Shown here one piece after another: positions 9,598 to 64,000 of a DNA stretch of 64,000 bases. The notes under the pieces are model-generated. The model was not told where the DNA came from. It made no database searches and saw only the letters and a list, made by a program, of their open reading frames with translations. Every line of letters starts with the position of its first letter. Positions within the stretch are counted from its first letter, which is position 1. The translations under genes were made by a program, and so were the position numbers. Origin of the DNA: Flavobacteriales bacterium UBA7690 (lineage in GTDB: Bacteria; Bacteroidota; Bacteroidia; Flavobacteriales_F; PHOS-HE28); NCBI GenBank assembly GCA_002482775.1, contig DLGQ01000039.1, forward strand, positions 66,182 through 130,181, written 5' to 3'.

Positions 9598-11063
9598 CTT
9601 CGCTTATTACGTGCAGGGCGAACGCCGCGTTCTTGAACACGTGGATCCGAACGGTCCGGATCGCCTCCGGAGAACGCATCGAGATCGAAACGTTGCCCGG
9701 TGGCAAGAGCCTTCCGCCTCCTGTCCAGGATATGACTGGTGATGAACAATCCGGAAACGAACAACGGCAACATCGGTATCTTGAAGCGCACCAATGCACC
9801 GAAATTCGGGGTGGTGACACCGATCATGAAAGCGTAGCCCACAGCGAAAACGAAACACAATTGCAACAACGGATTCCGCAGTACCAAGGTGATGAAGAAA
9901 ACCACCCGGCTACGGAAAAGGATATAGAGCACCAACAGGAACAAGAAGGTGTTCTCCAAGCCCGCAAGCACCATCACGATGTTGTTGCATTCGGGCAGCT
10001 GTGGCCTGAACAGACCGCCGAAGGTGGCCTGCGGGAACTTCCCCAAGACACTGGACCATGTGGCTTCCATCTCCCCGATATCGAAGAAATTCGTCCCATA
10101 CTGCTCGCTCCGCTTCAGGTCGGCCTGGCTTACCACGATGGTCTGGAGCGCTACATCCAAAGAGAACTTCCCCAACCGGTCGCCAAGGCCTTGTATCACG
10201 AAGATGGAACCGGTCGCCAAGACGGTCATCGCCACGGGTAGGAACAACATACGCACCAGTGCGTTGCGGAAGTGCCGCACACGATGGTACAACAGCCATA
10301 ACAACGTGGCTGGAAAAACGGTCATGAAAACATAGGGCTTCATGGCGATCATGATCCACGCGGCCAACACCACGTTCACCCAATTGCGCCACGCGTTCCT
10401 ACCTACGAAGAAGATACTGTCCAAGCCATAGATGAACCAACACACGGCGGAGAACGCGAAGGTGTCCTTAAGCAGGCCCGAACCCCAGAACACGCAAGAG
10501 GGCAGGAACAGAACGGCGATGGCCAAACGACCAGGTATCTGCGGATAGTAACGCACGAGCATGCGGTACAGGTTCCAAACGCCACCGTACGTGATCGTGC
10601 TCACCACGACGGAGACCAGGATGATGCTCTTGAAGCTCACCAGCAGGAGCACGCCAACGAGTTTCACCAGGAAGTACGTACGTTCATCCGCATAGATGTA
10701 ACCCAGCGGAAAACCCGTTCCCGAATCATACAGGTACCGATAGTTCTCCAAGGTGTTGGGGAGGAAGAACATCTCGAAGAATTTCCCGGGATCGATCATT
10801 GCCAGGTTGGCCACCGGAACAGCCGAGTTATAGAAGCTGATCGTATCCCCGTTGTCGTAGTAGTAAACGAAGATCCAGATCAGGCTAAGGGAACCGAAGA
10901 GGCGGGCGAAGTACCCCAGTAGATAATACTTGTACTCCGGGTTCTGCCCGATCATCAGCCGCTTCTTCCGCCCGTAGTAGAGCACGAACACGACGATGTA
11001 GACCACCAGGAGCATGAACTCCCATGCGTGGATGGTCACGAAGGCGGATCCGAACTCGAACAT
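9594..11063 (-). CDS. polytopic membrane protein, possible polysaccharide polymerase (Wzy-like)
   Basis: 489 aa with many hydrophobic helices. Position is between glycosyltransferases. No family motif recognised; the function is inferred from context. Confidence 0.5.
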   Translation of the reverse strand: MFEFGSAFVTIHAWEFMLLVVYIVVFVLYYGRKKRLMIGQNPEYKYYLLGYFARLFGSLSLIWIFVYYYDNGDTISFYNSAVPVANLAMIDPGKFFEMFFLPNTLENYRYLYDSGTGFPLGYIYADERTYFLVKLVGVLLLVSFKSIILVSVVVSTITYGGVWNLYRMLVRYYPQIPGRLAIAVLFLPSCVFWGSGLLKDTFAFSAVCWFIYGLDSIFFVGRNAWRNWVNVVLAAWIMIAMKPYVFMTVFPATLLWLLYHRVRHFRNALVRMLFLPVAMTVLATGSIFVIQGLGDRLGKFSLDVALQTIVVSQADLKRSEQYGTNFFDIGEMEATWSSVLGKFPQATFGGLFRPQLPECNNIVMVLAGLENTFLFLLVLYILFRSRVVFFITLVLRNPLLQLCFVFAVGYAFMIGVTTPNFGALVRFKIPMLPLFVSGLFITSHILDRRRKALATGQRFDLDAFSGGDPDRSDPRVQERGVRPARNKRR

Positions 11064-11225
11064 GCTTTATTGTAGCTGCCAAATGTAGACGGCACAAGCG
11101 CTGCACACCCGACCACCAATGGATCCATCCCCGGGCTCCGATCACAGGAAGATGGTTCCAGGGCCCACATCGCCCGACTAGCCCCGCATGTGCCCCGGCC
11201 GTATCTTGCACCGCGTCCACCACAC

Positions 11226-12098
11226 ATGTTGCGCGATTGCCCGATCTGCGATGCCCACGATGGGCGTTTCCTGAAGAATTACACCAAGCACCACCTGGCC
11301 CGATGCAGGAGGTGCGGTATGGTGTATGCTGGAAAACGTCCTACCCCAGCCGAACTTGCGGAATTCTACGCTACCTACCCGCTTCACGCGCAACTCAATC
11401 CGATCACGCGCGCTCGATACCTGGAATTGCTGACCGACCTGGCTCCTGCACGCACGCACGGCCGCATACTGGATGCGGGATGCGGGGTGGGTTTCTTCTT
11501 GGATACGGCCAGGGAGGCCGGCTGGGATACCCACGGATCAGAATACGACGAACGCGTGGTGAAGACCTGCCGTGACCGCGGTATCACCATGTGGCAAGGG
11601 GCGTTGACCACCGAGAGCTTCCCCGACGCCTATTTCGACGTGATCACCAGCTTCGAGGTGATGGAACACTTACAGGACCCGCTTGCTGAGCTCCGGAACT
11701 TCCACCGCATGTTGCGCCCAGGGGGTGTTCTCTACATCACCACGCCCAATTTCTCGGCCTTGAGCCGGCGCCTCATCGGACAGAACTGGAGCGTGGTGAA
11801 CTACCCTGAACACCTCAACTACTTCACACCGGCAACGCTGCGCAGAGCATTGGAAAGCGCCGGACTTTCCGTGACCGCATGCCGAACCACCGGCATCAGT
11901 GTGAGCAGGCTCAGCTACCGCGTGGATTCTTCTGACCAGCGGGAGGCGAACCACACGCCCATGAACACGGACCAACGTCTACGTGCACGGATCGAAGGCA
12001 ATGGCCTCTTGCGTGTGGGGAAAAGCAGCCTGAACGCGCTACTGGGCATGTTATCTGCCGGAGACACCATCAAGATGTTCGGCGCTCGGCCTCAGTGA
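11226..12098 (+). CDS. class I SAM-dependent methyltransferase with N-terminal Cys4 zinc-ribbon
   Basis: CPICD...CRRCG zinc ribbon, ILDAGCGVGFFL (motif I), LRPGGVLYITTPN. Start placed at MLRDCPICD. Confidence 0.8.
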   Translation: MLRDCPICDAHDGRFLKNYTKHHLARCRRCGMVYAGKRPTPAELAEFYATYPLHAQLNPITRARYLELLTDLAPARTHGRILDAGCGVGFFLDTAREAGWDTHGSEYDERVVKTCRDRGITMWQGALTTESFPDAYFDVITSFEVMEHLQDPLAELRNFHRMLRPGGVLYITTPNFSALSRRLIGQNWSVVNYPEHLNYFTPATLRRALESAGLSVTACRTTGISVSRLSYRVDSSDQREANHTPMNTDQRLRARIEGNGLLRVGKSSLNALLGMLSAGDTIKMFGARPQ

Positions 12099-52353: not shown

Positions 52354-53730
52354 CTACCTCGGCAACGATAGGACATGATCCAAGGCATCATCCGCCTTCA
52401 CCTCGATGTCGGGCTTCACCCCTACCTGATCCAAACGCTGTAGGTCCGCATTGTAATAATCCGCGATGGGAAGGAACAGGTGGTACTTGCCGCTGACCTG
52501 GAACATTGCAGCACTGAGCATGGCTCCCGCCGTGTTCTCGCCCACGATGGTGGCTCTACCCGATCGTTTCAACGCATCCACGATGGGTTCGCAGGTGCTC
52601 GCGGTCTTGTTGCTGGTGAGGATGTACAGGTTCCCTTTGAAGGCATTGGTGTGTGGGTACAACACCAAGTGCCTGCCTTCCGATGTCTTCAGCGCTTCGA
52701 TGAACGCTTCAGTGGTCCGCTCTTGCGCGATGGGGAGGTCCTTGAACGCTGCGGCGCTTGGCGGCCTGGTGACCTTGCTCGCCCACGTGTTCGTTACGAA
52801 ATAGCCGGCGTCCACCGTGTCCATAGCGAAGCATTCACCGAATGGCAGCGCGCTGTCCAAGCCACCACCGCCGTTCTTCCGCAGGTCCACGATCAGCGTG
52901 CGGAATCCACCCTTCAACAACGTATCGCAAATGGCATCCATCTCTTGCGTCGAGCCACCGAAACTTTGAACATCCATGTAGAGCGTAGTGGGGTCGATCA
53001 CCTTAAGGAACACGTTGCGTTCGCTCGTATCCGCTGCCAGCGATGGCGTCTCTTCCAAAAGCAATAGGTTCAAATGGCTGAACGGAAGCTCTTGTGAAAG
53101 CACACTGAACCCGAAGAAGAACTCCACATCGTCCTTCACACGTTTCGCGATCCGGTCCATCTTCTTATCGAACGTGTTCCACTCCTTGGTCTTCAGCAGC
53201 GCTCGGTCGTAGATGTTCTTCTCGCTGGTCGATCGTAGCGCCGCATAGAGTGCAGCATAGTCCGTCTTCTGGAACAACCCCGACTTCGCGATGGTGATGG
53301 AACCCGTTCGTTCCCCGTTCTTGAACAGCCCACCCTTGATCACCCCTGCCCGCTCCACCGCCTTGATATCTGACGTACCGAGCATGGGCATAGTCAAGTT
53401 GGCGAACACGCTGTCCCCATCACCAAAGCGCTGGAACCTACCATCGCTTAACGCCAACAGCTTGCCCTTCTTCGGCAGCTTCTTCATCATTCGGGCCAGC
53501 TTGCTCTTCACCGTTCCGAAAACCCTTCGATCCGCGTTCTTGGGTGACTTGGCTGTGAAGTGCGTTGCGTCCGACCACACAAGATCCAGGTACGTATCCA
53601 CGGGTCCGAACTCGGTGCCGAAGATGATCTGGCACTGCCACCGCTCGTCAGCCGGTACTTCGCTCTGGGGAAGTGCCAACAAGGGAAGAAGAAGGAAGGG
53701 GATCGAAGCAAGGGATCGCAGCATGCGCAT
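52354..53730 (-). CDS. S41-family (tail-specific/C-terminal processing) peptidase-like protein
   Basis: Signal peptide. LIVDLRKNGGGG and TSNKTASTCEPIVDALKRSGRATIVGENTAGA are the S41 catalytic-domain blocks. Confidence 0.8.
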   Translation of the reverse strand: MRMLRSLASIPFLLLPLLALPQSEVPADERWQCQIIFGTEFGPVDTYLDLVWSDATHFTAKSPKNADRRVFGTVKSKLARMMKKLPKKGKLLALSDGRFQRFGDGDSVFANLTMPMLGTSDIKAVERAGVIKGGLFKNGERTGSITIAKSGLFQKTDYAALYAALRSTSEKNIYDRALLKTKEWNTFDKKMDRIAKRVKDDVEFFFGFSVLSQELPFSHLNLLLLEETPSLAADTSERNVFLKVIDPTTLYMDVQSFGGSTQEMDAICDTLLKGGFRTLIVDLRKNGGGGLDSALPFGECFAMDTVDAGYFVTNTWASKVTRPPSAAAFKDLPIAQERTTEAFIEALKTSEGRHLVLYPHTNAFKGNLYILTSNKTASTCEPIVDALKRSGRATIVGENTAGAMLSAAMFQVSGKYHLFLPIADYYNADLQRLDQVGVKPDIEVKADDALDHVLSLPR

Positions 53731-53866
53731 GTGGGTCGGTTGTCGAACCGTGTGCCAAAGTAGAGGACACGTTATCGTATTCTACTGACATGTCCTTGAA
53801 TGGGTTTGAGCAAAGCAGGACCCATGGAAATCATGACCCGTCCTGAAATGGGACCCCGACCGGGCC

Positions 53867-54991
53867 TCAGCCCTTCTTCTTCCCGAACCAGCGCGCGTGC
53901 AGCGATGGTTTGCGCGGCGTGCCATCGTCGCTACCGAGCACATAGCCGAAGGGCTTCAGGCCGGGCACATGATCGAAGGCCACCTTGAGCACGGCCGTGA
54001 GGGGGATGGCCAGGAACATGCCGGGTATGCCCCACAGCGCGCCACCGATCATTACCACGATGATGGACACCAACGCGTTCAGCTCCACGCGCGAGGCCAC
54101 CACGTTGGGCACGATGAAGTTGTTGTCGACGAACTGCACGGCGCTGTAGAGCACCAGCACCCACAAGGCAGCGCTGGGTTCCATGGTGGCCAGGGCGATC
54201 ACCATGGGCAGCACGGTGGCGATGATCATACCGATGTACGGGATCAGGTTGAGCACGGCGGCGATAACGGCCAGCAGCAACGCGTACGGCACACCGATGA
54301 TGAGCAAGCCGGCGAAATTGAGCACGGTAACGATGCCCGCCTGCAGGATCAGGCCGATGAGGTAGCTCTGCGCAACGCCCTTCGCACCTTGCAGCATGTG
54401 GTGTACGGCACCCAGCTGCGTTGGGCTGAACAACTGATCGATGAAGGTGAGCAGCAACCGCTTGTAGAGGAGGAAGAGGAAGGTGAACACCGGCAGAAGG
54501 AATGCGAAAGCGAACACGCTGCCCATGGTGATCAGGGCGCCGCCCACCAGCTTACCGCCCCGGGTCATGCTCTCCTTCTTCGCCGTGGCCAGCGCGTCGT
54601 CCACGGTCTTGGCATCCAAGTCCGTGCGCGACAATACCCACCCTTGCAGTTTGCCGCCCAGCGCGCCCACCTTTTCCTCCAAGCCCGGCAAGCTCGCGCT
54701 GAAGTGCGCAGCTTGGGTGATGATGAAGTACGACAGCCCGGTCGCACAGCACATGGCCAGCAGCACAGCGAGGGCGATGGCCACCACGCGGTTCAGGCCG
54801 TGGCGCGTCAGGAAATTCACCAACGGGTTCAGCAGCAGGGCCAGCAGCAGGGCGAAAAGCAAGGGCACCACGATGGGCTGCGCCTGCACAAGGCCATAAA
54901 CCAACGCGACCAGGCCCAGCACGATGAGCGCGAGCTTCTGGTACACCGGTTGGATCACATGCGGATGCGTGGTCGTGGCGGGTTCGTTCAT
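53867..54991 (-). CDS. AI-2E family transporter (PerM/UPF0118)
   Basis: About 8 TM helices. Terminal block is NALVSIIVVMIGGALWGIPGMFLAIPLTAVLKV. Start at MNEPATT. Confidence 0.85.
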   Translation of the reverse strand: MNEPATTTHPHVIQPVYQKLALIVLGLVALVYGLVQAQPIVVPLLFALLLALLLNPLVNFLTRHGLNRVVAIALAVLLAMCCATGLSYFIITQAAHFSASLPGLEEKVGALGGKLQGWVLSRTDLDAKTVDDALATAKKESMTRGGKLVGGALITMGSVFAFAFLLPVFTFLFLLYKRLLLTFIDQLFSPTQLGAVHHMLQGAKGVAQSYLIGLILQAGIVTVLNFAGLLIIGVPYALLLAVIAAVLNLIPYIGMIIATVLPMVIALATMEPSAALWVLVLYSAVQFVDNNFIVPNVVASRVELNALVSIIVVMIGGALWGIPGMFLAIPLTAVLKVAFDHVPGLKPFGYVLGSDDGTPRKPSLHARWFGKKKG

Positions 54992-55119
54992 GGCGTAAGG
55001 CGAGCGGTGATCAACGCTGCCCAGCCAAGGTATCCCGTTATGATCTCCGAAGGGCGCTCGAATGGTCAAAGCCTACACACCGCCTTCCGTCCTCGGAGAC
55101 CCCGCCTTCGTGAGAAGCC

Positions 55120-55716
55120 TCATTCCTCCCACCGCACCGCCACCACCATTTCGTTCCGGCGCGCCAGCAGCTGCCAGGGCGGATCGTAGCCCAGGAAACG
55201 CACGGGGCCTATCTGTTCGAGCCCGGCCTCCTTCACCTTCCGCAGGAGCTCCTTCGCGTACTTCTCGAACTTCTCGTCACTGGAAAAACCACCGAAACGC
55301 AGTACAGCCACCACCTCTTCCGGAACGCGTTGAAGCTTCACGTTCGCGTCGTTCGGTTCGGGCAGGCTGTCCATGGTAAGGTCCGATGGCATCACGAAGC
55401 GCATGCGCGAACTGTCCGCTCCCATCTCCATGTGTACCGGGGCCGTCATGGCGATCTTCTTCCCGCCTTCGTTGCCGCCGAAGATGTAGCCCGCCAGACT
55501 GCGGAAGCCGGAATTGCTGATCTCCTTGTACGTACCCCCTGGCCGCAGCACCGTGGCGGTGAGCGCTTCGGGATAACGGCGGATATCCATATCCCCGATG
55601 GTCTTCAGCACTGCATATGGCTGCTGTGGTGTGCCTTTCGTGCTCATGGTGGTGTAGGTCTGGAACGCGATGAACAAGAAGACAAGACCGCCGATGATGT
55701 ACATGACTTTGCGCAT
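55120..55716 (-). CDS. SOUL heme-binding-family protein
   Basis: PYAVLKTIGDMDIRRYPE, GFRSLAGYIFGGN, IAMTAPV, LGYDPPWQLLARRNEMV. Confidence 0.85.
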   Translation of the reverse strand: MRKVMYIIGGLVFLFIAFQTYTTMSTKGTPQQPYAVLKTIGDMDIRRYPEALTATVLRPGGTYKEISNSGFRSLAGYIFGGNEGGKKIAMTAPVHMEMGADSSRMRFVMPSDLTMDSLPEPNDANVKLQRVPEEVVAVLRFGGFSSDEKFEKYAKELLRKVKEAGLEQIGPVRFLGYDPPWQLLARRNEMVVAVRWEE

Positions 55717-55810
55717 GAATGAAGCTGTACAGAGGTAACACCTGGGACAGGGAAATGGTGCGATGCAACAGCACGATCAGGTCATGCGCTCCTCCCACAA
55801 GGTGAACGAA

Positions 55811-55908
55811 CATCCGCGAGCAGCGGACAGAGGGCGGTGGCGGTCTAAGGAACCATAGGGGTCATCCGCTTATCGCTTCGCAAAAGCCTCGCGAGCAGCG
55901 GCACAGGA
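55811..55908 (+). repeat. structured intergenic repeat, copy a (two partial units)
   Basis: GCGAGCAGCGGACAGAGGGCGGTGGCGGTCTAAGG is a 3' part. It is followed by GGGGTCATCCGCTTATCGCTTCGCAAAAGCCTCGCGAGCAGCGG, the 5' part of the long form. Alignable by eye to copies b-g. Confidence 0.7.
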
Positions 55909-55928
55909 AAGAGACTCGCACTTGGCCT

Positions 55929-56492
55929 CTACTTCCCTCCCTCCTCACCCCCCATCATCCCCAGCTGCTCCATCATCTTGAACTCCTCCATATAGCCCCA
56001 GTGCTCCACCACTTTCCCGTTCTCGAAGCGAAGCACATCCACCGTATGCACATCGATGGGCTTGTTCGTAGCGGGCATGCCTTCGCCCATAGGACCGGTG
56101 TTCACGCCCTTCCAGCGGTAATGCGCCACCACACGATCGCCATCCGCGATCAGGTGTAGGTCCTCGGTCTTGTTGTCGGTGAAGGCCCCGGAGGACTTGG
56201 CGATCATGTCCTTCAGCTGCTGGATGCCCGTGGTAGTGACACCCGGCATGGGGATGTTAGACTTGAAATTCTCCGCCACGATCTCCTCGATGCCGTCCGT
56301 CTTCCCCGAGAACCACAGGTCGAGGAAGCGCTGGGTGGTCTGCTTCATCTGTTCCACCTCCGCTTGCTTCACACTGTCGGCCGACATCATGGCTTTGTGC
56401 TCGGCCATCATCGTGTCGTGCTCGGGGTTGGGTCCTCCGCAAGAACACAGGAATGCTGCTAGGGGTAGGGCAAGTACGAGTGGGTTCTTCAT
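55929..56492 (-). CDS. SnoaL-like/ester-cyclase-family lipoprotein
   Basis: Lipobox LAAFLCSC. LIADGDRVVAHYRWKGVNTGPM...ATNKPIDVHTVDVLRFENGKVVEHWGY. Confidence 0.7.
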   Translation of the reverse strand: MKNPLVLALPLAAFLCSCGGPNPEHDTMMAEHKAMMSADSVKQAEVEQMKQTTQRFLDLWFSGKTDGIEEIVAENFKSNIPMPGVTTTGIQQLKDMIAKSSGAFTDNKTEDLHLIADGDRVVAHYRWKGVNTGPMGEGMPATNKPIDVHTVDVLRFENGKVVEHWGYMEEFKMMEQLGMMGGEEGGK

Positions 56493-56576
56493 GCGAATTC
56501 AAGTTGGAAATCGAATGTAAGGAAGGGTAGCGGGCCTGGTAGCAAGCAGGAGAAGAAAAGTGATGACTGCTGCGCA

Positions 56577-56646
56577 CCGCAGGGCCGTCGACTCAAGAGC
56601 AGCGAACAGAGCCGACGGAGCATTCGGAAGGACACCCGGCTATAGG
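56577..56646 (+). repeat. structured intergenic repeat, copy b (short form, degenerate)
   Basis: CCGCAGGGCCGTCGACTCAAGAGCAGCGAACAGAGCCGACGGAG...GGACACCCGGCTATAGG. Confidence 0.7.
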
Positions 56647-56663
56647 CCGCACTCAGCAAGCGA

Positions 56664-57212
56664 TCACGCGGTCCGGCGCCGCACATACTCGCTCTGTACG
56701 AGCCCGCCGGGCAAGCTGCGGCTCGCCACCAGCTTCATCGGGATGTCGCGGTCCAGCGCCCCGAACAGGCGAACACCCTGCCCGATAAGCACCGGCACAT
56801 GGGTCACGATCAAGCGGTCGATGAATCCCGCACGCAGGAAGCGCTGCACCGTGGCCCCGCCATCGATGTACAGGTTGCGGAAGCCGCGCGCGGCTAGCTG
56901 CGCCACCACTTCCTCCGGTGTCGCGTTCAACAGTTCCACATCGCCACCACGGTCAAGCGCAGGCGATAGGTCGACGGCCGTGCTACTGAGCACGATGACC
57001 TTTTTCGCATACGGCCAAGCGTCAAAACCCATCACCACCTCGAAGGTCCTCCGGCCCATCACCAGCGCGTCGATGCCGGCCATGAAGGCCTCGTATCCGT
57101 GGTCCCCCATCTCGGCCGTGCCATCCCCTTCCAAGAAGTCCAACGCGCCATCGGGACGTGCTATGAAACCATCGATACTGATGCCGCAGAAGACGGAACA
57201 GGTGGAGCGCAT
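56664..57212 (-). CDS. dihydrofolate-reductase-like (RibD C-terminal domain) family protein
   Basis: ISIDGFIARPDG, VMGRRTFE, LYIDGGATVQRFLRAGFIDRLIVTHVPVLIGQGVRLF. Confidence 0.8.
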   Translation of the reverse strand: MRSTCSVFCGISIDGFIARPDGALDFLEGDGTAEMGDHGYEAFMAGIDALVMGRRTFEVVMGFDAWPYAKKVIVLSSTAVDLSPALDRGGDVELLNATPEEVVAQLAARGFRNLYIDGGATVQRFLRAGFIDRLIVTHVPVLIGQGVRLFGALDRDIPMKLVASRSLPGGLVQSEYVRRRTA

Positions 57213-57265
57213 GGTGCGAAATTATCCCACCGGCACCGAAGGCCATGCGGTCGAAATGGCGGTGC

Positions 57266-57340
57266 CCGATGGGCCGTCTACTCAAGAGCAGCAGACAGAC
57301 CCGGCAGAGTTCTGGAAGGACATCATGAGGTGGCCAAGAA
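57266..57340 (+). repeat. structured intergenic repeat, copy c (short form, degenerate)
   Basis: CCGATGGGCCGTCTACTCAAGAGCAGCAGACAGACCCGGCAGAG...GGACATCATGAGGTGGCCAAGAA. Confidence 0.7.
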
Positions 57341-57366
57341 TGTGATCCGCGCCGATCGCCTCTTCC

Positions 57367-58113
57367 CTACCTCCCGGCCGATAGACCCGTCCATTGCCGC
57401 ATCAACTCCAAGACCTGTTGGTCCCTTTGTGCCAACTCCGGCCGCTGCTGCCCTTGTCGGCGGATCTCGGCCTCCACATCCAGCAGCATGCGTTGCCGTT
57501 GCCCGGCTGAGAAGTGATCGAAGTAGCGCTTCATGTCCAAGGACTCGTCCAGCGCTTGTTGGTCCGCACCGAGGCACCCTTGGTCCAGGAACGTGGTGAA
57601 GTAGGTCAACCGCTCGCTGGGGTCCCAAACGCCGGTCGCATTGCCGTGGAACATGGACCCGAAGACCTCCGTGGTGCCATCGGCAAGCTGCTTCACGCCT
57701 TGCATGGTAGGCGTGTGGTTCACAGAGAAGAAATCGAACAGACGCTGGAGGGGATCCTTGCTTTTGTTGAAGCGCTTCAAATAGCGCTCGAAGAAGTGCG
57801 CGCTGAAGTAGATATCCGCATCGCTGCCGAGCAGATCCACCCGCACGGCACGCAGCCGCTTATCGCGACCATGATACCGGACCAGGCCGGCCATTTGCGT
57901 GCTCCGTTTGGTGCGGATCAACACCAGGATCCACTCGTTGCCGCGCGGCGAACGCCAGGTGATGGCCTGCTCAATGCGATCGACGCCCTTGGGCGAGACA
58001 CGAAACTCACGCTCCATGCGCTTGCCTAATGGCTTCAACTTGTTCACCAAGGCGCGCAGGTCCTTCCGCGCGTCATCGGCGACTTCCTTGGGTGACATCG
58101 AACGTACGACCAT
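57367..58113 (-). CDS. hypothetical protein
   Basis: 248 aa from MVVRSMSPKE. The longest-ORF ATG (58200) lies inside repeat copy d, so an internal start is preferred. No motif recognised. Confidence 0.45.
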   Translation of the reverse strand: MVVRSMSPKEVADDARKDLRALVNKLKPLGKRMEREFRVSPKGVDRIEQAITWRSPRGNEWILVLIRTKRSTQMAGLVRYHGRDKRLRAVRVDLLGSDADIYFSAHFFERYLKRFNKSKDPLQRLFDFFSVNHTPTMQGVKQLADGTTEVFGSMFHGNATGVWDPSERLTYFTTFLDQGCLGADQQALDESLDMKRYFDHFSAGQRQRMLLDVEAEIRRQGQQRPELAQRDQQVLELMRQWTGLSAGR

Positions 58114-58194
58114 GGCATACGGGGTTTGTATGCCGCTTGTACGGGTGCGAGCTGGTGGGGTTACTCCTAATATTGGCACGCTTGCGGCTTCGAT

Positions 58195-58334
58195 CCGCAT
58201 GGTCGTCCGCTATCGCTTCGCCAGGCCCCGCGAGCATCGGAAATCCCGCTGTTCAGCGGGACCGGTGGTGGTATAGGAGGACACCATGCGGCGGTCTAAA
58301 CCGGGGAGGGGAGGTGACCATGCGGTGGTCTAGA
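58195..58334 (+). repeat. structured intergenic repeat, copy d (long form with duplicated 3' arm)
   Basis: CCGCATGGTCGTCCGCT-ATCGCTTCGCCAGGCCCCGCGAGCATCGGAAATCCCGCTGTT-CAGCGGGACCGG...GGACACCATGCGGCGGTCTAAA...GACCATGCGGTGGTCTAGA. Confidence 0.8.
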
Positions 58335-58752
58335 TGTGCCTCCTCACCCAAGGATCGAAACCAGTGGTGGGGGAATCATCGCTCGCAGGATCATCGGCCG
58401 TCCTGATCAGCTGCTTCTTGAATGCCCAGTGCCTCAGTTGCGCGCTGGTCCGCACGTTGAAGTTCCTCCCCAAATGAGTGAAGTAGGCCAGAACGGTACG
58501 CTCCTGCAATCCCAATGCGTGTCTGATCTCTTCATCCGTTAGCTCCGGATGTTGGCATACGTACTGAACGAAAACCCATTCGCGTGGTGTGATCCGGGCG
58601 AGGATATGTTCCCGCGTACCCAATTCCGGGTCCTCGTTGGCCCCATACAGCGCATTGTAGACCTTGGGCCCATGGTTGAAACGCGCCAAGGCAAGCGATG
58701 ACGGCGCGCTACCGTAGCCGAGACAAATGGAACGTTCCTGTTCATCAGCCAT
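58330..58752 (-). CDS. LuxR/GerE-type helix-turn-helix protein
   Basis: ITPREWVFVQYVCQHPELTDEEIRHALGLQERTVLAYFTHLGRNFNVRTSAQLRHWA fits the LuxR C-terminal HTH pattern. Start is uncertain (58752/58764/58785). The stop codon is the CTA of the repeat terminus GGTCTAGA. Confidence 0.5.
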   Translation of the reverse strand: MADEQERSICLGYGSAPSSLALARFNHGPKVYNALYGANEDPELGTREHILARITPREWVFVQYVCQHPELTDEEIRHALGLQERTVLAYFTHLGRNFNVRTSAQLRHWAFKKQLIRTADDPASDDSPTTGFDPWVRRHI

Positions 58753-59214
58753 ACTCCCATCCATTCGGCCCGGGAGAAGGCGCATTGAACGATACCAAAT
58801 TGGATCAAATACACCTGATCGGGACCAGCAGGTAGCATTGGTTACGAACCGGACCGAGTTGATCAACAACGCTCGTGGAAACCACTCCGAACCGCTCTAC
58901 ATGAAGAAGAGGGTATTTGCACTCGCGAACCGCAAGCCCTTTCTTCTCGCAAACGTTCCCATCAAAAACGAAACCGCCGGCCGGGGAATGCATCCTGCAA
59001 CGCACTTGACCGCATCCTTCAGTGTCCTGCGAGATCCCAGCGATGCGACCAAAGGCCACTCCGTAAGCTACCGCCGCCAAAGCCCGCGGAACAACAGCAT
59101 ACATGGCAGATGCATGCCAGGCGCTGGTTCATCGCGCACGATCGTATCGTGCATCGCACCTAGGCGACGCGCGGCAGGACCCAGAGAAGATGGTGTGGTG
59201 AGCACGGCTACGGG

Positions 59215-59318
59215 CCGCAGGCTTGCCTTCCGGAGGCAGGGTCGCCCGCTCAGCGCTTCGCTAGGCCTCGCGAGCAGCAGGAACCGGATGGGAGAACAAC
59301 CCGTGGCAGCCTATGATC
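59215..59318 (+). repeat. structured intergenic repeat, copy e (long form, with extra hairpin insert)
   Basis: CCGCAGG-[CTTGCCTTCCGGAGGCAGG]-GTCGCCCGCTCAGCGCTTCGCTAGGCCTCGCGAGCAGCAGGAACCGG...ACCCGTGGCAGCCTATGA. Confidence 0.7.
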
Positions 59319-59345
59319 CTCGGACATTCCAACGCTGCGTGCACC

Positions 59346-60026
59346 TCAATACAGCGGAACGATACGGCCATTCTCAATGCGGCCTTTGAAGCGGATGGTG
59401 TCGCCCACTTGGAAGAGCACCTCTTCGAGCATGATGTCACGATGGCCACCACGCCCGTTGCCGATGACGTAGCTGTCCACCATGCCGGAGCGACCTTGCA
59501 GGGCCTTCACGGCGCGTATATCGTCGGCATATTCCTGATCGAAGAGCGTGGAGACGTGGTTGCTTCGGAACCTCCCGCCAAGCTTGCCGCTGTGATCGCC
59601 CGGCGTCCACATGAGCGTGATGGAATCGGGGAGAGCGGTGTAGCTGACATCCCCGATGGAAACCACCAGGCCGGGTGCTCCCATGAAGATGACATCGTCA
59701 TCATGATCGTAACGTGGTCCGCTGCTGGGGCCGCTGCTGCGTCCACCGGTCGGTCCGCTCATGTCCATCAGCAGGGCTTGGGTCAAGGCGTAGGCCGCTA
59801 CGTCCGCGTGGGAGAAGGGCGCACGCACCGTGCCTGCGGAGACCACGATGGCCTGCAGTTCGGGCAAGGCTTTGATGCGTTCCACCTCGTTGTACCGCTC
59901 CGCCTGCATCCGCTCGATGCCCACCACATCCCGGTTGAACTTGCTTACGAGGGCATAGATGCCGAGACCAGCGACCAGCAGAATGAACACACCCGAAATG
60001 AGCAGGATCTTGAAGGCTCGACGCAT
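59346..60026 (-). CDS. N-terminally membrane-anchored hypothetical protein (possibly GIDE-domain-like)
   Basis: MRRAFKILLISGVFILLVAGLGIYALV TM anchor. GTVRAPFSHADVAAYAL loosely recalls GIDE domains. The longest-ORF ATG (60074) lies inside repeat copy f. Confidence 0.45.
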   Translation of the reverse strand: MRRAFKILLISGVFILLVAGLGIYALVSKFNRDVVGIERMQAERYNEVERIKALPELQAIVVSAGTVRAPFSHADVAAYALTQALLMDMSGPTGGRSSGPSSGPRYDHDDDVIFMGAPGLVVSIGDVSYTALPDSITLMWTPGDHSGKLGGRFRSNHVSTLFDQEYADDIRAVKALQGRSGMVDSYVIGNGRGGHRDIMLEEVLFQVGDTIRFKGRIENGRIVPLY

Positions 60027-60055
60027 GGGACGAAAGTAGAACAGTGCATGGCGAG

Positions 60056-60150
60056 GCGCAGGGTTTTCGCTCATCGCTTCTCAAGGTCTCGCGTGTAGCG
60101 GACATCCCGCTGTTCAGCGGGACCGGCGGAGGTTTGGGGGGAAACACCTG
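60056..60150 (+). repeat. structured intergenic repeat, copy f (long form)
   Basis: GCGCAGGGTTTTCGCTCATCGCTTCTCAAGGTCTCGCGTGTAGCGGACATCCCGCTGTTCAGCGGGACCGGCGGAGGTTTGGGGGGAAACACCTG. Confidence 0.75.
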
Positions 60151-60182
60151 ATCTTGAGGTCACAAATTGTGACCTCAAGATC
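60150..60182. promoter_or_regulatory. 33-nt perfect palindrome 12 nt upstream of the ORF6N start codon
   Basis: GATCTTGAGGTCACA-AAT-TGTGACCTCAAGATC: 15-bp arms and a 3-nt centre. Confidence 0.6.
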
Positions 60183-60194
60183 TACTTTGGTGCC

Positions 60195-60773
60195 ATGAGC
60201 AAGGCGCTGGTCAAGATCCCGGACGAGATGGTCGCGCGGAGGATCTTCTCGATCCGTGGCGAGAACGTGATGCTCGACACCGACCTGGCACAGCTATATG
60301 GCGTGGAGACCAAAGTGCTCAAGCAGCAAGTCAAGCGTAACGTCCAGAGCTTCCCGGAGGATTTCATGTTCGAGCTGACAGCTGAGGAGTTCGAGCACTT
60401 GAGGTCACAAATTGTGACCTCAAGACATGGCGGCGCCCGGTACATGCCCATGGCCTTCACCGAGCATGGCGTCCTCATGCTGTCCAGTGTGCTCAAGAGC
60501 CCGCGCGCACGTGCCGTGAACATCCAGATCATGCGCCTCTTCGTGAAGATGCGTGAGCACCTGCTGACGCACAAGGATGTGCTCCTTCAACTGGAGAAAC
60601 TGCGTGGCACTTCGAAAGAGCACGCGGGCAAGATCGCGGTGATCTTCAAGTACCTGAAGCAGATGGAGCAGCGCCAGCAAGAGACCGAACTACTTGACGA
60701 GATCCGGCGTGGCAAGGGGAAGAACCCCATCGGCTTCAAGGCTGTGACCGAGCGGCGCGGCACGAAGAAGTGA
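60195..60773 (+). CDS. ORF6N-domain (KilA-N-related) protein
   Basis: IFSIRGENVMLDTDLAQLYGVETKVLKQQVKRNVQSFPEDFMFELT..EEFEHLRSQIVTS..GGARYMPMAFTEHGVLMLSSVLKS matches the ORF6N domain as I remember it. Confidence 0.85.
   Translation: MSKALVKIPDEMVARRIFSIRGENVMLDTDLAQLYGVETKVLKQQVKRNVQSFPEDFMFELTAEEFEHLRSQIVTSRHGGARYMPMAFTEHGVLMLSSVLKSPRARAVNIQIMRLFVKMREHLLTHKDVLLQLEKLRGTSKEHAGKIAVIFKYLKQMEQRQQETELLDEIRRGKGKNPIGFKAVTERRGTKK
60398..60425. repeat. second exact copy (28 nt) of the palindrome, inside the ORF6N coding sequence
   Basis: CTTGAGGTCACAAATTGTGACCTCAAGA is identical to 60153..60180. It encodes LRSQIVTSR. Confidence 0.9.
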
Positions 60774-60786
60774 TCACGGCTCCGGG

Positions 60787-60860
60787 CCGCAGGGTCGTCC
60801 GCTCAAAAGCAGCGGACAGACCCGGCGGAGGTTTGTGTGGACACCCTGCGGTGGTCTAGA
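60787..60860 (+). repeat. structured intergenic repeat, copy g (short form, best preserved)
   Basis: CCGCAGGGT-C-GTCCGCT-CAAAAGC-AGCGGAC-AGACCCGGCGGAGGTTTGTGTGG-AC-ACCCTGCGG-TGGTCTAGA. Has a 9-bp outer stem and a 7-bp inner hairpin. Confidence 0.85.
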
Positions 60861-61275
60861 AGGCATCATGCGACTGTCGCGATCGCAGTCCTGCATACAT
60901 CCAACAGCTAAAGGCGAACTCCTTCTCTTCAGCATCTCTTCCCCAATCGTAGATCATCCGAAAGGTCAGACACGTCTCGATCAATGCTCTCAACAACACA
61001 TTGGCGGACTGCAAGTCGACGACCTTTCCACTCAGTTCCTTGTTGTAAGCGTTCGAGAATGAGTAGCCCTCCAGCAGACTCTTCATCGACATTGTATGGT
61101 ATGCGATCTTGAACCCGAGCTTCTCCGAATAGGTCAGCCATTCCAGCTCGCGCGTTCTTGCTTCATGCGGAGCCTCAATAAGATAACCTGCAAGGTCAAC
61201 AAGCCGACTGAAGTTCCGAAAATGGAGTGATGCGTCCTTACTTCCGGCCTCTTTGAGGAGTTGTAGGAGAATCAT
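60856..61275 (-). CDS. cassette ORF C5, hypothetical protein
   Basis: 139 aa from MILLQLLKEAG (a GTG-extended ORF runs to 61290). Follows the decayed carB-tail copy R5. Stop codon lies in the terminus of repeat copy g. Lower GC. Confidence 0.45.
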   Translation of the reverse strand: MILLQLLKEAGSKDASLHFRNFSRLVDLAGYLIEAPHEARTRELEWLTYSEKLGFKIAYHTMSMKSLLEGYSFSNAYNKELSGKVVDLQSANVLLRALIETCLTFRMIYDWGRDAEEKEFAFSCWMYAGLRSRQSHDAF

Positions 61276-61282
61276 TGTATCA

Positions 61283-61351
61283 ACACCCACCTAAAGAACG
61301 GCCCTTCAGATCCTTGATGAAGTAGATCTCCTCGCTGGTGCTACGCATCAT
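61283..61351 (-). repeat. carB-tail repeat R5 (decayed: frameshifted, 3' part missing)
   Basis: The minus strand reads ATGATGCGTAGCACCAGCGAGGAGATCTACTTCATCAAGGATCTGAAGG-GCCGTTCTTTAGGTGGGTGT, i.e. MMRSTSEEIYFIKDLKG followed by a 1-nt deletion. Confidence 0.75.
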
Positions 61352-61619
61352 TCTCGGCGTATTGAATGAGTCGCTCACCGATCGCCATCATGGGATCATT
61401 GGTGCCATGCGCGGCTTTCCAGTCAAACACAAAGTCACGTGCGATAGAGACCTCGAGGAAGTAATCTTTCCCATACATCCGCTGGAACCCGACCAGTGCC
61501 CCATCTTCTTGACCAGGACCGACAACCGCTTCTGAATGAACCGTCCATGGACGAGCAGCACAAATCGTGTCCTCTTCGTTGAACGAATCTATCTTCTCTA
61601 TGACGTCCAATAAGGTCAT
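61341..61619 (-). CDS. cassette ORF C4, small hypothetical protein
   Basis: 92 aa, acidic. ATG is 2 nt after the stop of R4. Its own stop lies 8 nt inside R5. Confidence 0.5.
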   Translation of the reverse strand: MTLLDVIEKIDSFNEEDTICAARPWTVHSEAVVGPGQEDGALVGFQRMYGKDYFLEVSIARDFVFDWKAAHGTNDPMMAIGERLIQYAENDA

Positions 61620-61621
61620 GC

Positions 61622-61744
61622 CTACCGACTGAGGTACATCGAGCGTTCACTATACACCTGTCGGAAGAACCCCGCATCAACGTGCGGGGCAGGCTCCTCC
61701 TTCAGCTCCTTGATGAAGTAAATCGCTTCGCCGGTGCTCTTCAT
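61622..61744 (-). repeat. carB-tail repeat R4 (intact 40-codon ORF with 9-codon in-frame insert)
   Basis: MKSTGEAIYFIKELKE[EPAPHVDAG]FFRQVYSERSMYLSR*. The ATG overlaps the stop of C3 (ATGA). Confidence 0.85.
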
Positions 61745-62043
61745 TCGGCACGGTATGAGTGGAACGTTCCAAATCTAAGGTACCCGGTCTCCTTCGCTTC
61801 TTCGGCCTTCGTCTTGAGTTCGGCTGCAACCAAATGTGATCGATGACGATCCTCGAATGGTTCAAGATCCTCGATGCCTACCACTGTCATCTTGTAGTGT
61901 TCAGCAGCAGCCTTGACCTCGCCTGAGAATTCAACAGCATCCTTCACGAACGCAACAACTTGAACGAAGCTGTTCTCTTTGATCAATTCGCAACCTCGTT
62001 CAGGACGCAGATGTACCAGTCCGATCCAGACGCGCTTCATCAT
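61741..62043 (-). CDS. cassette ORF C3, small hypothetical protein
   Basis: 100 aa from MMKRVWIGLVHL. ATG is 3 nt after the stop of R3 (a TTG at 62046 abuts it). Confidence 0.5.
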   Translation of the reverse strand: MMKRVWIGLVHLRPERGCELIKENSFVQVVAFVKDAVEFSGEVKAAAEHYKMTVVGIEDLEPFEDRHRSHLVAAELKTKAEEAKETGYLRFGTFHSYRAE

Positions 62044-62046
62044 CAA

Positions 62047-62163
62047 CTAACGGCTCAGATACATGGACTGCTCCCCGCACACCTGCTTAAAGAGCGGATC
62101 CCTCAGGTCCTTGATGAAGTAGATAACCCTGCCTCCGGCAGGCAGGCTCCTTGTGTTCTTCAT
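62047..62163 (-). repeat. carB-tail repeat R3 (intact 38-codon ORF, most diverged, in-frame hairpin insert)
   Basis: MKNTRSLPAGGRVIYFIKDLRDPLFKQVCGEQSMYLSR*. The ATG overlaps the stop of C2 (ATGA). Confidence 0.85.
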
Positions 62164-62936
62164 TGACCCTTCTTCATTGGAACGATTGGTTCACACCGTT
62201 CAAAGTACAGTGTGTCCCAGAGGCGCGCATCCATGCTCATGACCATTCGGCTCTCATCGATCTCAAAGATGGGTGCACGTGCTCCAACAATGCACCCACG
62301 ACCGAGGCCAATGGCACTGTCTGCGGGCTCCCAACTGTACTCGATCACTGAATCGGGATTGTTCTCTGCATAGATGCGAGCTAGACAGTCACGCCCTAAA
62401 TGCAGCGTGAAGTCATTCAACTCATCCGGATAGTTCACCAACTTGATAGGTCGCCAGCTCGCCGCGCGCAACTTCCACCAACCCGCAACTCTTCTATAGA
62501 GCGCATCCCCAGCTCGAAGTTCAGCCAGTGACTGTGCAAAGTCCGACTTCCACGGACGATCAAGATTGCGATAGATGAGGGTGGTACCCTTCGATGAGAT
62601 ACTGATCGAGGCACTATCGATCACCTGCAACTGATATTTCACCTCTTGACCAACGAGAACGTTCGCATCCTTCACAACTAAACAGCTATCGACCAAATAG
62701 CGATCCTTGCCTTGGGCAAATCGCCAGAATTCATTGCCACTCGTGATGATGATCACGTCAGTACCCCACGGCCGTGAAGCACCTACGACTGAATCGAGTC
62801 CCCATTCACCGATCGCCGTGAATATTCCTTGACGTCCAATCGATCCCGTCGCATCATGACCAGTTGGCGGTGCGCAGGAGATAACGAGACTCGCGAAGAA
62901 CAAGAAGAGTCCGATCATCCTGACTTCGCGCTTCAT
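62160..62936 (-). CDS. cassette ORF C2, predicted lipoprotein of unknown function
   Basis: 258 aa. Signal plus lipobox MIGLFLFFASLVISC. ATG is 3 nt after the stop of R2. Confidence 0.6.
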   Translation of the reverse strand: MKREVRMIGLFLFFASLVISCAPPTGHDATGSIGRQGIFTAIGEWGLDSVVGASRPWGTDVIIITSGNEFWRFAQGKDRYLVDSCLVVKDANVLVGQEVKYQLQVIDSASISISSKGTTLIYRNLDRPWKSDFAQSLAELRAGDALYRRVAGWWKLRAASWRPIKLVNYPDELNDFTLHLGRDCLARIYAENNPDSVIEYSWEPADSAIGLGRGCIVGARAPIFEIDESRMVMSMDARLWDTLYFERCEPIVPMKKGQ

Positions 62937-62939
62937 GGC

Positions 62940-63038
62940 CTAGCGGCTCAAATACATTGACCTCTCCTCATACACCTGCCTAAAGAACGGCTCCTTCAGG
63001 TCCTTGATGAAGTAGATCGCTTCGCCGGTGCTCTTCAT
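62940..63038 (-). repeat. carB-tail repeat R2 (intact 32-codon ORF)
   Basis: MKSTGEAIYFIKDLKEPFFRQVYEERSMYLSR*. By hand alignment 85 of 99 nt are identical to R1, and most differences are synonymous. Confidence 0.9.
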
Positions 63039-63039
63039 T

Positions 63040-63846
63040 TCACTGAATTGATCTCCGAGGCAAACGGCCGTATGCGTACCTCGTCGTACTCCGTAAGCTT
63101 AAAGTGGTCCGCAATAGCCCGTCTTCATCATAGACATTACGTTCATGGCTGTTGATCTTGCCCTTGATGAGCTCATACCGCTCCACCTCCCTGCCCTGCT
63201 CATCCCTGTTCACCACCTTGATCGCAGATAATGAAGAAGTGTCAAGCTCAGCCAGCAGCGGGTGCACATCCCGAATGTCGTAAACGGTCCGGTCCCGGTA
63301 TACCACCTTGCCGTACTCGTCCAGGTTGATCTGTTCCATTCTCCGTCCTAGGCTATCATATGTGTACGTCCGCGTGTAATCACTGCGCCACCTAGGCGGG
63401 TTTGAGATCCTGCTGATCCGCCCTTCGCTGTCATATTCCCAAATGGTGACCCCTGTCTTTTCCATTCGACCTTTTTCGTCAACGCCATAGTCCGTGACGG
63501 AAAAGAGATGCCCATGCTTATAGCGGAAGTTGTACCTGCTCAAATCGTGAAAGTTCTGAACCTGAACCCTTATTCTTCTCTTCCTATCGTAGATGTATGA
63601 ATCATGGACGGGTGACTTCTCTCCTTTGAACCAAGAGAACTGCTCCCGTTCCAACCCATCTTGATCATAATAGGTGATACTGGTGGTATCCACCCTCGTT
63701 GTATCGGTGGCGTATACTGTGGTGACGATACAAGCGGAATCAAGCCGCTGCCCTAAACAGAAGGATGTCAATAGCACCAGTCCTGAGATGAACAGCAACC
63801 GCAATGCGGATACCCGTTCGCTATGCGATACGGGCGCGCTGATCAT
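63040..63846 (-). CDS. cassette ORF C1, secreted/lipoprotein-like protein with YD-type repeats
   Basis: 268 aa. Hydrophobic N-terminus LRLLFISGLVLLTSFC. Repeated YDxxG motifs (YYDQDGLE, WEYDSEGRISRI, YTYDSLGRRMEQ, VYDEDGLLRT). The ATG overlaps the carB stop (ATGA). Confidence 0.6.
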   Translation of the reverse strand: MISAPVSHSERVSALRLLFISGLVLLTSFCLGQRLDSACIVTTVYATDTTRVDTTSITYYDQDGLEREQFSWFKGEKSPVHDSYIYDRKRRIRVQVQNFHDLSRYNFRYKHGHLFSVTDYGVDEKGRMEKTGVTIWEYDSEGRISRISNPPRWRSDYTRTYTYDSLGRRMEQINLDEYGKVVYRDRTVYDIRDVHPLLAELDTSSLSAIKVVNRDEQGREVERYELIKGKINSHERNVYDEDGLLRTTLSLRSTTRYAYGRLPRRSIQ

Positions 63847-63941
63847 CGGCTGAGGTACATGGAACGCTCCCCATACACCTGCCTGAAGAACGGATCCTTC
63901 AGGTCCTTGATGAAGTAGATCGCCTCGCCAGTGCTCTTCAT
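63843..63941 (-). repeat. carB-tail repeat R1 (the native terminus of carB: last 32 codons + TGA)
   Basis: MKSTGEAIYFIKDLKDPFFRQVYGERSMYLSR*. This is the reference copy for R2-R5. Confidence 0.9.
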
Positions 63942-64000
63942 CTCAGGTCCGAGGCTCTTGTCCACGTTCGGGAACTTGTCGAAGCTGAAGACGGGCACCT
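63843..64000 (-). CDS. carB: carbamoyl-phosphate synthase large subunit, 3' end (partial; short form without the C-terminal MGS-like allosteric domain)
   Basis: VPVFSFDKFPNVDKSLGPEMKSTGE matches the conserved CarB block FPF.KF.G.D..LGPEM(K/R)STGE. The ORF ends 26 codons later and runs off the right edge. Confidence 0.8.
   Translation of the reverse strand, partial: VPVFSFDKFPNVDKSLGPEMKSTGEAIYFIKDLKDPFFRQVYGERSMYLSR

Follow-up and report, generated by a model that had tools for sequence, protein, structure and literature searches.

Co-oriented hairpin repeats bound small genes at the 3' end of carB in Flavobacteriales: candidate junctions of an integron-like cassette array

Integrons are defined by the integrase IntI together with the signature of their attC sites, and they are, to our knowledge, the only well-understood system in which single promoterless or compact genes are shuffled via a structured, single-stranded recombination site. 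In the model of integrative and conjugative elements (ICEs) and cis-mobilisable elements (CIMEs), the latter accrete at the 3' end of a housekeeping gene, for example fda in Streptococcus thermophilus. The rAID-1 clusters of Bacteroidales comprise a 5' XerD-like recombinase (>44% identity to BF9343_RS08045) and at least two co-directional genes with a GC content of ≤41% or a skewed one, and these arrays, whose small accessory genes have repetitive sequences between them, were called reminiscent of integrons by their authors (Ross et al. 2019, bioRxiv 10.1101/471110). Here we examined a 64,000-nucleotide stretch of Flavobacteriales bacterium UBA7690 (contig DLGQ01000039.1, positions 66,182 to 130,181; the window), near one end of which a 75-140-nt element, here called R, separates small genes in an array adjoining carB. 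Literature searches found no account of such arrays in Flavobacteriales, and the only comparable system that they turned up in Bacteroidota was the rAID-1 of gut Bacteroidales.

An earlier note, made from the letters of the window, had proposed seven co-oriented copies of a structured repeat, and these were present at essentially the coordinates given there, by covariance model, BLAST and reading of the sequence. The covariance model (R1) was built from 20 members of the R family, and the array-bearing contigs compared with the window are labelled L001-L056. Four copies are strong (c2, c3, c4 and c7) and three degenerate (c1, c5 and c6); all seven were placed on the + strand by sequence reading, repeat detection and the covariance model:

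c1, 55808..55908, + strand: composite of two truncated or degenerate R copies, at the array end farthest from carB
c2, 56564..56652, + strand: short-form R (covariance model 66.4 bits; nhmmer E 1e-14)
c3, 57253..57340, + strand: short-form R (covariance model 70.9 bits)
c4, 58182..58335, + strand: long-form R; its loop has two insertions and its 3' unit is present twice (58279-58300 and 58313-58334)
c5, 59204..59316, + strand: degenerate long-form R with a palindromic insertion (59221-59242) in its left arm
c6, 60053..60145, + strand: long-form R with a degenerate 3' unit, compared with L004, L008 and L011
c7, 60774..60861, + strand: canonical short-form R (covariance model 106 bits; fold z-score -3.1)

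The covariance-model score of c4 was 41.8 bits at 58182-58301 with default filters and 30.5 bits at 58220-58301 with filters off, its extra 3' unit (58304-58335) adding a hit of 11.5 bits with filters off. Scores were lower for c5 (nhmmer E 0.083; covariance model E 0.06 at 59221-59316) and for c6 (nhmmer E 1e-3; covariance model E 0.035 at 60107-60142), the latter continuing into a 33-nt palindrome upstream of the next gene. The model returned c1 at E 1.8 only (55808-55850), and BLAST matched this copy at 85-96% identity to R copies of L003, L004, L010, L013 and L014. Its first part is a loop and right-part fragment ending GGTCTAAG, and its second part a left arm with a long loop; 55815-55840 matches L003 and L013, and 55859-55906 is 92% identical to L013. 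No R was found in the window outside 55.8-60.9 kb by a fuzzy block search or by the covariance model; fuzzy matches to the three conserved R blocks fell only within 56.5-60.9 kb, and about 50 other intergenic gaps of the window are without R.

The element proved longer than first described. It starts with (G)TGA and a conserved 5' leader, (TGA)TCACGGCTCCGAG, and its conserved 3' tail, AGGTTTGGGAGGACACCCTGCGGTGGTCTA, terminates sharply at GGTCTA; sequence just outside TGA and GGTCTA is unrelated among the aligned copies, which are 75-95% identical across conserved stretches of 30-40 nt. The full layout is (G)TGA, TCACGGCTCCGAG, CCGC·A·GGGTC, a 7-nt stem, the loop, the returning stem, A, GACCC·G·GCGG, AGGTTTGGGAG and GACACCCTGCGGTGGTCTA. 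Between leader and tail stands an imperfect, bulged hairpin of 16 bp with a variable inner stem of 7 bp and three conserved bulged bases. The loop ranges from 4 to >50 nt: it is CAAGAGC-like in short forms and is replaced or extended in long forms by self-pairing modules such as ATCGCTTCGCAAAGCCTCGCGAG, CCCGGCTTAAGGCCGGG and CCCGCTGTTCAGCGGG. Long and short forms had been thought to differ by a single insertion of ~41 nt, and several independent hairpin insertions were found instead, among them a ~23-nt loop module (ATCGCTTCGCnnnGCCTCGCGAG), the CCCGCTGTTCAGCGGG module, the left-arm insertion of c5 and the duplicated 3' unit of c4. The last ~20-30 nt of R (GGACACCCTGCGGTGGTCTAR) occur in tandem twice in c4 (58279-58334), twice in L011 (1837-1889) and three times in L013 (1029-1172), a pattern that looks like an iterated protein-binding unit or a slippage product.

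The R hairpin is supported by covariation with a large margin. Across 82 covariance-model hits from 35 sources, 81.9% of the cells in the 16 pairs were paired, against 72.6% in shuffles, and cells with double changes numbered 77, against 22.7; none of 500 shuffles reached any of these measures. Compensatory changes were seen in 16 of the 16 pairs, and slid registers of the hairpin were only 28-47% paired. The bulged A, A and G were conserved in 51-60 of ~70 copies. In these respects R is like attC, where the inner stem keeps its structure more than its sequence, the bulged bases are retained and the terminal loop varies greatly. A second pairing was also considered, in which the 3' unit ACCCTGCGG would pair with CCGCAGGGT at the 5' side in the manner of an antiterminator switch; it was rejected at 74.4% paired versus 74.1% in shuffles, a value reached by 197 of 500. 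The 3' unit is a conserved direct repeat and no pairing partner of the 5' box. An Rfam search with R gave no match, and no T-tract terminators were seen at R, with 3.7 expected.

For the distribution of R, a 20-mer of the 3' unit was scanned over one genome per species for 185,579 species. Matches were confined to 14 Flavobacteriales metagenome-assembled genomes (MAGs), with one stretch in each, and one chance match in Succinivibrio; 25 metagenome contigs matched the same pattern. IMG/VR held no match to the 20-mer pattern, and PLSDB plasmids and GenBank phages held none to the whole of c7 by BLAST. Co-oriented R arrays occur in ~40 contigs of related Flavobacteriales MAGs, with 82-98 R copies found by profile and covariance searches at a spacing of 0.4-3 kb, and orientation was uniform inside each of 38 loci (98 copies, nhmmer).

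The address of the arrays is equally regular. The arrays adjoin carB, which is encoded on the opposite strand and has its 3' end facing them, and R is antisense to carB or to copies of its tail in all ~22 loci where both could be scored. carB was identified by Pfam domains in L008 and L011, accounted for 5 of 123 screened open reading frames (ORFs), and is full-length in L046 and L052; no R was found in the 12-kb L043 locus, which lies mostly upstream of carB. The window itself terminates inside carB. L016 runs on into the gene, and a 10-kb Logan contig found via ORF6N is identical to the window and adds 0.9 kb of carB; a look-up of the exact protein encoded at 63040-63846 gave no record.

The orientation of R does not follow that of the genes. 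Among ORFs of at least 80 codons, 23 on the + strand end at the R left edge, 9 of them via TGA, and 27 on the minus strand end at the right edge, 14 of them via the CTA of GGTCTA. In the window the cassette genes split 5 to 1 between strands, with TGA 60771-60773 directly before c7 serving as the ORF6N stop codon, CTA 60856-60858 in c7 as the TAG stop of the minus-strand gene 60856-61290, and CTA 58330-58332 in c4 likewise as the TAG stop of gene 58330-58785 (minus strand). Since ORFs face R about equally from both sides, R orientation is independent of transcription, which speaks for R acting at the DNA level, in connection with the array or with the chromosome. In integrons, by contrast, most cassette ORFs point the same way and have attC on their 3' side.

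The genes of the R array in the window are as follows:

55929..56492, - strand: SnoaL-like protein with a lipoprotein-like N-terminus (Pfam SnoaL, E 2.5e-27)
56664..57212, - strand: RibD_C/DHFR-like reductase (Pfam RibD_C)
57367..58113, - strand: gene3, member of a family of 248-amino-acid ORFans with no Pfam, NCBIfam or PDB match
58330..58785, - strand: small protein with a marginal LuxR-type helix-turn-helix (HTH; NCBIfam ErdR C-terminal region, E 0.008), also a gene call in L016
58805..59104, - strand: ORF of 99 amino acids, also a gene call in L016
59170..59201, + strand: decayed 3' end of a cassette gene (…PEKMVW and stop, the stop at 59199-59201), from the left-flank listing
59346..60074, - strand: gene5, a membrane-anchored ORFan, joined directly to other cassettes by a hybrid R in L023 and L026
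60150..60773, + strand: ORF6N-domain cassette (Pfam ORF6N, E 5.5e-35)
60856..61290, - strand: nearest gene to the R array towards carB, with a stop codon inside c7; a gene call in L016

One gene per interval, as the earlier note had it, is therefore approximate: the c4-c5 interval holds two ORFs and the remnant of a third, + strand gene. Its gene labels were mostly right, with SnoaL, RibD_C and ORF6N borne out by Pfam, the LuxR-type HTH only marginal (E 0.008) and the other cassette genes ORFans.

These genes recur between R copies in other loci with different neighbours, as was seen for gene3, RibD_C, SnoaL, gene5, ORF6N and an S41 peptidase gene. The SnoaL cassette was found again in L023, L030 and L051 and the RibD_C cassette by BLAST in seven loci (L012, L014, L015, L023, L040, L051 and L052). 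BLAST between loci placed gene3 between R copies with varying neighbours in the window, L005, L007, L017, L026, L046, L051 and L052, at least six species-level contexts besides that of the window; its family is limited to this Flavobacteriales group, with 26 homologue clusters only. ORF6N is the most recurrent cassette (window, L004, L008, L011, L018, L024 and L030), and its stop codon always lies within the TGA at the R left edge. The …PEKMVW gene end also abuts R in L004, L007 and L015 (59165-59221 was compared by BLAST with L004 and L007), and a diverged …MFW version abuts R in L005, with no stop codon at the corresponding position.

Gene content and order differ between genomes, contrary to the invariant synteny across relatives that the earlier note had named as grounds for abandoning its proposal. 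SnoaL-RibD_C is joined directly to gene5 in L023, as is gene3 in L026. L051, a close relative of the window by its gene3 protein (93% identical), has the order gene3-SnoaL-…-RibD_C-SUFU-S41, where the window has gene3-RibD_C-SnoaL-SOUL-AI-2E-S41. With co-oriented arrays in ~40 contigs, one locus per genome and genes recurring beside new neighbours, the suggestion that these units are cassettes is supported in the functional sense.

Integron arrays, including sedentary chromosomal integrons and clusters of attC sites lacking an integrase (CALINs), offer close parallels: one structured, imperfect palindrome per cassette in uniform orientation, compact, single and mostly ORFan genes whose stops overlap the site, toxin-antitoxin cassettes, and arrays that are stable within species and differ between species. 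The cargo of the R arrays consists mostly of ORFans, and it also includes toxin-antitoxin pairs (ParE; DUF5615/DUF433), SUFU, OmdA, DNA-alkylation repair and YhcG; the toxin-antitoxin and defence or immunity genes parallel those of chromosomal integrons and rAID clusters. rAID-1 is like the R arrays in phylum and in its small accessory genes and repeats, and some R cargo is immunity-like (SUFU, NTF2/SnoaL-like, OmdA). The R arrays differ from rAID-1 in that no XerD-like ORF was found with E. coli XerD as query, gene orientation is mixed and GC is ~0.60 against ~0.58 in the surroundings (the array has 0.60-0.61, the rest of the window 0.57-0.62).

Hybrid R copies link sites with their genes and suggest where an exchange would occur. 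In L023 and L026 the left arm of the hybrid agrees with that of the R found beside the left-hand gene in other loci, and from the loop rightward the hybrid agrees with c5, the R found beside gene5 in the window; alignment of c5, L023 and L026, in each of which R precedes gene5 or its homologue, gives the same loop and right part with three different left arms. Conversely, L026 and the second R copy of L007 have a common left arm, including a private 21-nt insertion (TGCCTGTCCCGCCTYAGCGGG), up to …CGTCCGCTC, and then diverge. The ~10 nt that contain the switch point, GTCGYCCGCT, are located at the loop's 5' base. This segment is the covarying inner stem and not the longest conserved stretch, the 35-nt 3' tail, a position that favours a site-specific cut over homologous exchange without proving it.

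We read R as the junction site of an integron-like cassette array that is anchored at carB, mostly sedentary and dependent on a new type of hairpin site and an unlinked, non-IntI recombinase, and put this reading at even chances. A recombinase encoded elsewhere would recognise the R hairpin by its shape and by the conserved outer boxes, and would exchange strands at the loop's 5' base. Each cassette would then comprise the loop and right half of one R, the gene or genes, and the left arm of the next R, and could be excised, re-inserted or swapped between arrays. Such a process would resemble integron attC × attC recombination with a different site, crossover position and enzyme (non-IntI). The wider proposal, that these arrays are a new class of gene-capture platform in Bacteroidota whose ~90-nt non-attC hairpin site represents an independent, convergent invention of the integron principle, is more tentative, and we lean somewhat against it.

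If the reading of R as a cassette junction is true, environmental Flavobacteriales (activated sludge, lakes) arrived at the cassette-array architecture by way of another site and probably another enzyme. A pool of ORFans, toxin-antitoxin pairs and immunity-like genes invisible to current integron-finding tools would come to light, and the tendency of assemblies of these organisms to break at carB would find an explanation. For enzyme hunting, the 82 copies and covariance model give an alignable site, and the carB 3' end a genomic address.

Several observations weigh against this reading, beginning with the recombinase searches. When most ORFs of the 64-kb window were scanned with Pfam, no recombinase came up; the scans returned polysaccharide-synthesis, type IX secretion system (T9SS) and housekeeping genes. 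Twenty large ORFs and the screen of 123 ORFs from other loci gave only DDE transposases of insertion sequence (IS) type. phmmer searches with E. coli XerD, IntE, PinE and RayT against the six-frame translation of ~350 kb of array loci returned nothing below E 0.26, with single-sequence seeds of this kind able to miss divergent enzymes. Nor was a recombinase found in 9 kb upstream of carB (L043), in 14-18 kb of downstream arrays (L046 and L052; Pfam gene tables) or in the L051 flank. The genes upstream of carB are ftsH, rsfS, birA and rpmH in L043 and one for an S4/HSP15-like protein in L052; because CarB homologues mostly lie at contig ends, wide contexts are few, and both flanks were obtained from L043, L046 and L052. 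gene3 was entertained as a hidden recombinase and dropped, having no sequence match in Pfam, NCBIfam or PDB. A recombinase, if one exists, is unlinked to the array.

Further points on the same side concern the site and its history. The crossover mapping is thin, with about three independent events and sequences just 85-93% identical, and per-column linkage over 43 near-full copies gave a weak signal, in an underpowered analysis dominated by ORF6N pairs and with only three pairs sharing a right flank. The alignment behind the covariation was fitted to the model's own structure and so leans towards structure, with the margin large. The wobble counts point to neither strand as the folded one: G·T and A·C are equally frequent (62 and 65), so there is no sign of RNA-level or single-strand-specific constraint. 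No recent activity is visible: within a species, contigs from 4-5 samples (L046-49 and L052-56) showed no difference in their arrays, which are thus sedentary on short time scales. Finally, R is decayed or absent at the array end most distant from carB (c1 in the window; L051 beyond gene3).

The first competing explanation, which we find possible and on balance improbable, takes R to be a passive repeat, for example a structural or insulating hairpin at gene ends, with cassettes reshuffled only through RecA-dependent homologous recombination between R copies, inside one genome or following DNA uptake, and no dedicated recombinase. It sits well with the failure to find a recombinase in any locus, with the stability of the arrays within species and with the weak positional signal of the all-copy linkage analysis, and the 75-95% identity over 30-40-nt stretches could support occasional homologous exchange. 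The three mapped switches speak against it, lying as they do in the ~10-nt inner stem and not in the 35-nt conserved 3' tail. Homologous recombination also leaves unexplained the co-orientation of R irrespective of gene direction, its sharp edges, conserved bulges and covarying stem, and how the repeats first came to bound unrelated genes.

A second competitor draws on the region directly beside the R array, where four displaced copies of the carB 3' end were found:

61303..64000, - strand: carB-tail region, with four displaced copies of the last 13-50 carB codons (…EMKSTGEAIYFIKDLKEPFFRQVYEERSMYLSR and stop), from repeat detection, BLAST with the L011 carB 3' end, and translations
61303-61349: displaced carB tail
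61623-61748: displaced carB tail
62048-62149: displaced carB tail
62927-63042: displaced carB tail
63843-64000: true carB 3' end

Each displaced tail immediately precedes a single small ORFan gene, with only a few bases separating the tail stop from the start codon of that gene. About 20 other loci have similar tails, sometimes interleaved with R units (L004 and L010); this interleaving, together with the antisense placement of R to carB in every locus where both were seen, bears out the suggestion that the R array and the abutting carB-tail array form one plastic region. Homology of the R left edge with the carB stop region was considered, as the window reads …AGCCGATGATCA there, and was rejected: TGATCA is not conserved at the carB end elsewhere.

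From such a layout one could argue that R and the tails are leftover attL/attR-type sites, debris of small integrative elements that accreted at the carB 3' end through the integrase of a now-absent ICE, integrative and mobilisable element (IME) or phage. The four displaced 3' ends, each with one small gene beside the R array, the interleaving in L004 and L010, the decay of the R copies farthest from carB and the failure to find a resident recombinase all suit this account, as does the general likeness to CIME/ICE accretion, in which duplicated target-gene 3' ends separate small inserted units. We nevertheless judge it clearly unlikely. Comparison by eye shows no evident similarity between R and the carB tail, R was not found in plasmid, phage or IMG/VR collections, the units are single genes of 0.4-1 kb and far below typical integrative elements, and no integrase-bearing element was seen. 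The R architecture, with its covariation, has moreover been kept across many species, which points to ongoing selection on the site.

R might also be a dispersed selfish repeat, of the repetitive extragenic palindrome (REP/REPIN) or miniature inverted-repeat transposable element (MITE) type, or an RNA-level element such as a terminator, 3'-untranslated-region (3'-UTR) structure or small RNA (sRNA). R is palindromic, GC-rich, intergenic, variable in length and located at gene 3' ends, and it shares its imperfect palindromes and a modular mosaic composition with REPs, bacterial interspersed mosaic elements (BIMEs) and REPINs, repeats that go with REP-associated tyrosine transposases (RAYTs). Whereas those repeats are genome-wide, occur in both orientations and are RAYT-associated, R occupies a single locus in a single orientation, with no RAYT detected. 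The spread over intergenic sites that the earlier note had named as refuting was sought as well: 14 of 14 genomes matched by the 20-mer have it in one stretch and the rest of the window has no R, and one locus per genome at a single carB-linked address rules out a generic dispersed REP. For the MITE alternative raised in that note, reading of the aligned edges, TGATCACGG… and …GGTCTAG, showed neither inverted repeat nor flanking duplication, and it is rejected. RNA-level accounts face the lack of T-tract terminators and of an Rfam match, an orientation independent of gene direction and no G·U excess on either strand. This family of explanations is largely refuted and, to us, very improbable.

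Canonical attC sites in a CALIN served by an IntI elsewhere in the genome are hardly credible in spite of one structured repeat per cassette, the imperfect bulged hairpin, variable loop, co-orientation and diverse, ORFan-rich cargo, since 0 of 82 copies carry RYYYAAC near the left edge (searched to a distance of 15 nt) and 0 of 82 carry GTTRRRY at the right one, RYYYAAC-N40-135-GTTRRRY has no match on either strand of the array region, the inferred crossover lies at the loop base and not in the R' box at the hairpin base, ~30-40 nt of the site and not 6 nt move with the neighbouring cassette, the 3' tail with its iterated unit is extra, ORF orientation is mixed, and in this Bacteroidota host the carB 3' end adjoins the array instead of intI, attI or the promoter Pc, with no integrase nearby, so that the attC alternative raised in the earlier note is not supported.

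Apart from R, further elements were noted around carB. An element of ~115 nt, here called A (TTTGGGCGTGCCCCCGGCTCAAATGCAGCCGGGGTCGGGC…GCTTTCCGCT…CACGCG), stands directly after the carB stop or a displaced tail in nine loci and is absent from the window. Its sites are:

L012:296
L017:12913, - strand
L019:7232, - strand
L022:1103
L024:3999, - strand
L033:2271, - strand
L037:307
L051:112
L052:5448

The hairpin and CAAATGC loop of A resemble those of R, so A could be an attI-like partner site or the carB terminator. At L008:7938 and L011:7960 an A-like element is inverted and lies beside a start codon upstream of the carB C-terminal half; carB may in some genomes be split there or carry a second insertion point. 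Protein-database entries for CarB from this group are nearly all partial (376-628 amino acids) and come from contig ends.

Short GC-rich palindromes, such as GGAGCCTGCC…GGCAGG and CCCCGCACGTTGATGCGGGG, are inserted at several positions in R left arms and displaced carB tails. Insertions were located as follows:

59221-59242 of the window: in c5
~61668-61698 of the window: in the second displaced tail
62126-62147 of the window: in the third displaced tail
L001, L007, L008, L009, L022 and L024: further insertions

The insertion types recur among genomes; a mobile mini-palindrome or a repair footprint is possible.

Among the cassettes of other arrays are genes for ParE with an antitoxin, DUF5615 with DUF433, a HEPN_AbiU2-like protein and SUFU-family proteins (L046:13042-13565, L052:9089-9612 and 10941-11527, L050:17772-18226). 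Just beyond c1, at 52354-55716, the window has S41 peptidase, AI-2E transporter and SOUL genes without R. The S41 peptidase gene is flanked by R in L002 (3694-5151) and L040 (4161-5588), with none in the window. The genes just past c1 may be former cassettes whose R sites have disappeared, and if so the array is larger than the repeats imply. Just upstream of the ORF6N gene lies a perfect 33-nt palindrome, GATCTTGAGGTCACAAATTGTGACCTCAAGATC, at 60150-60182, of which a second, 28-nt copy occurs inside the coding region at 60398-60425; it is conserved in L004, L008, L011 and L030 and resembles an operator for the ORF6N DNA-binding protein.

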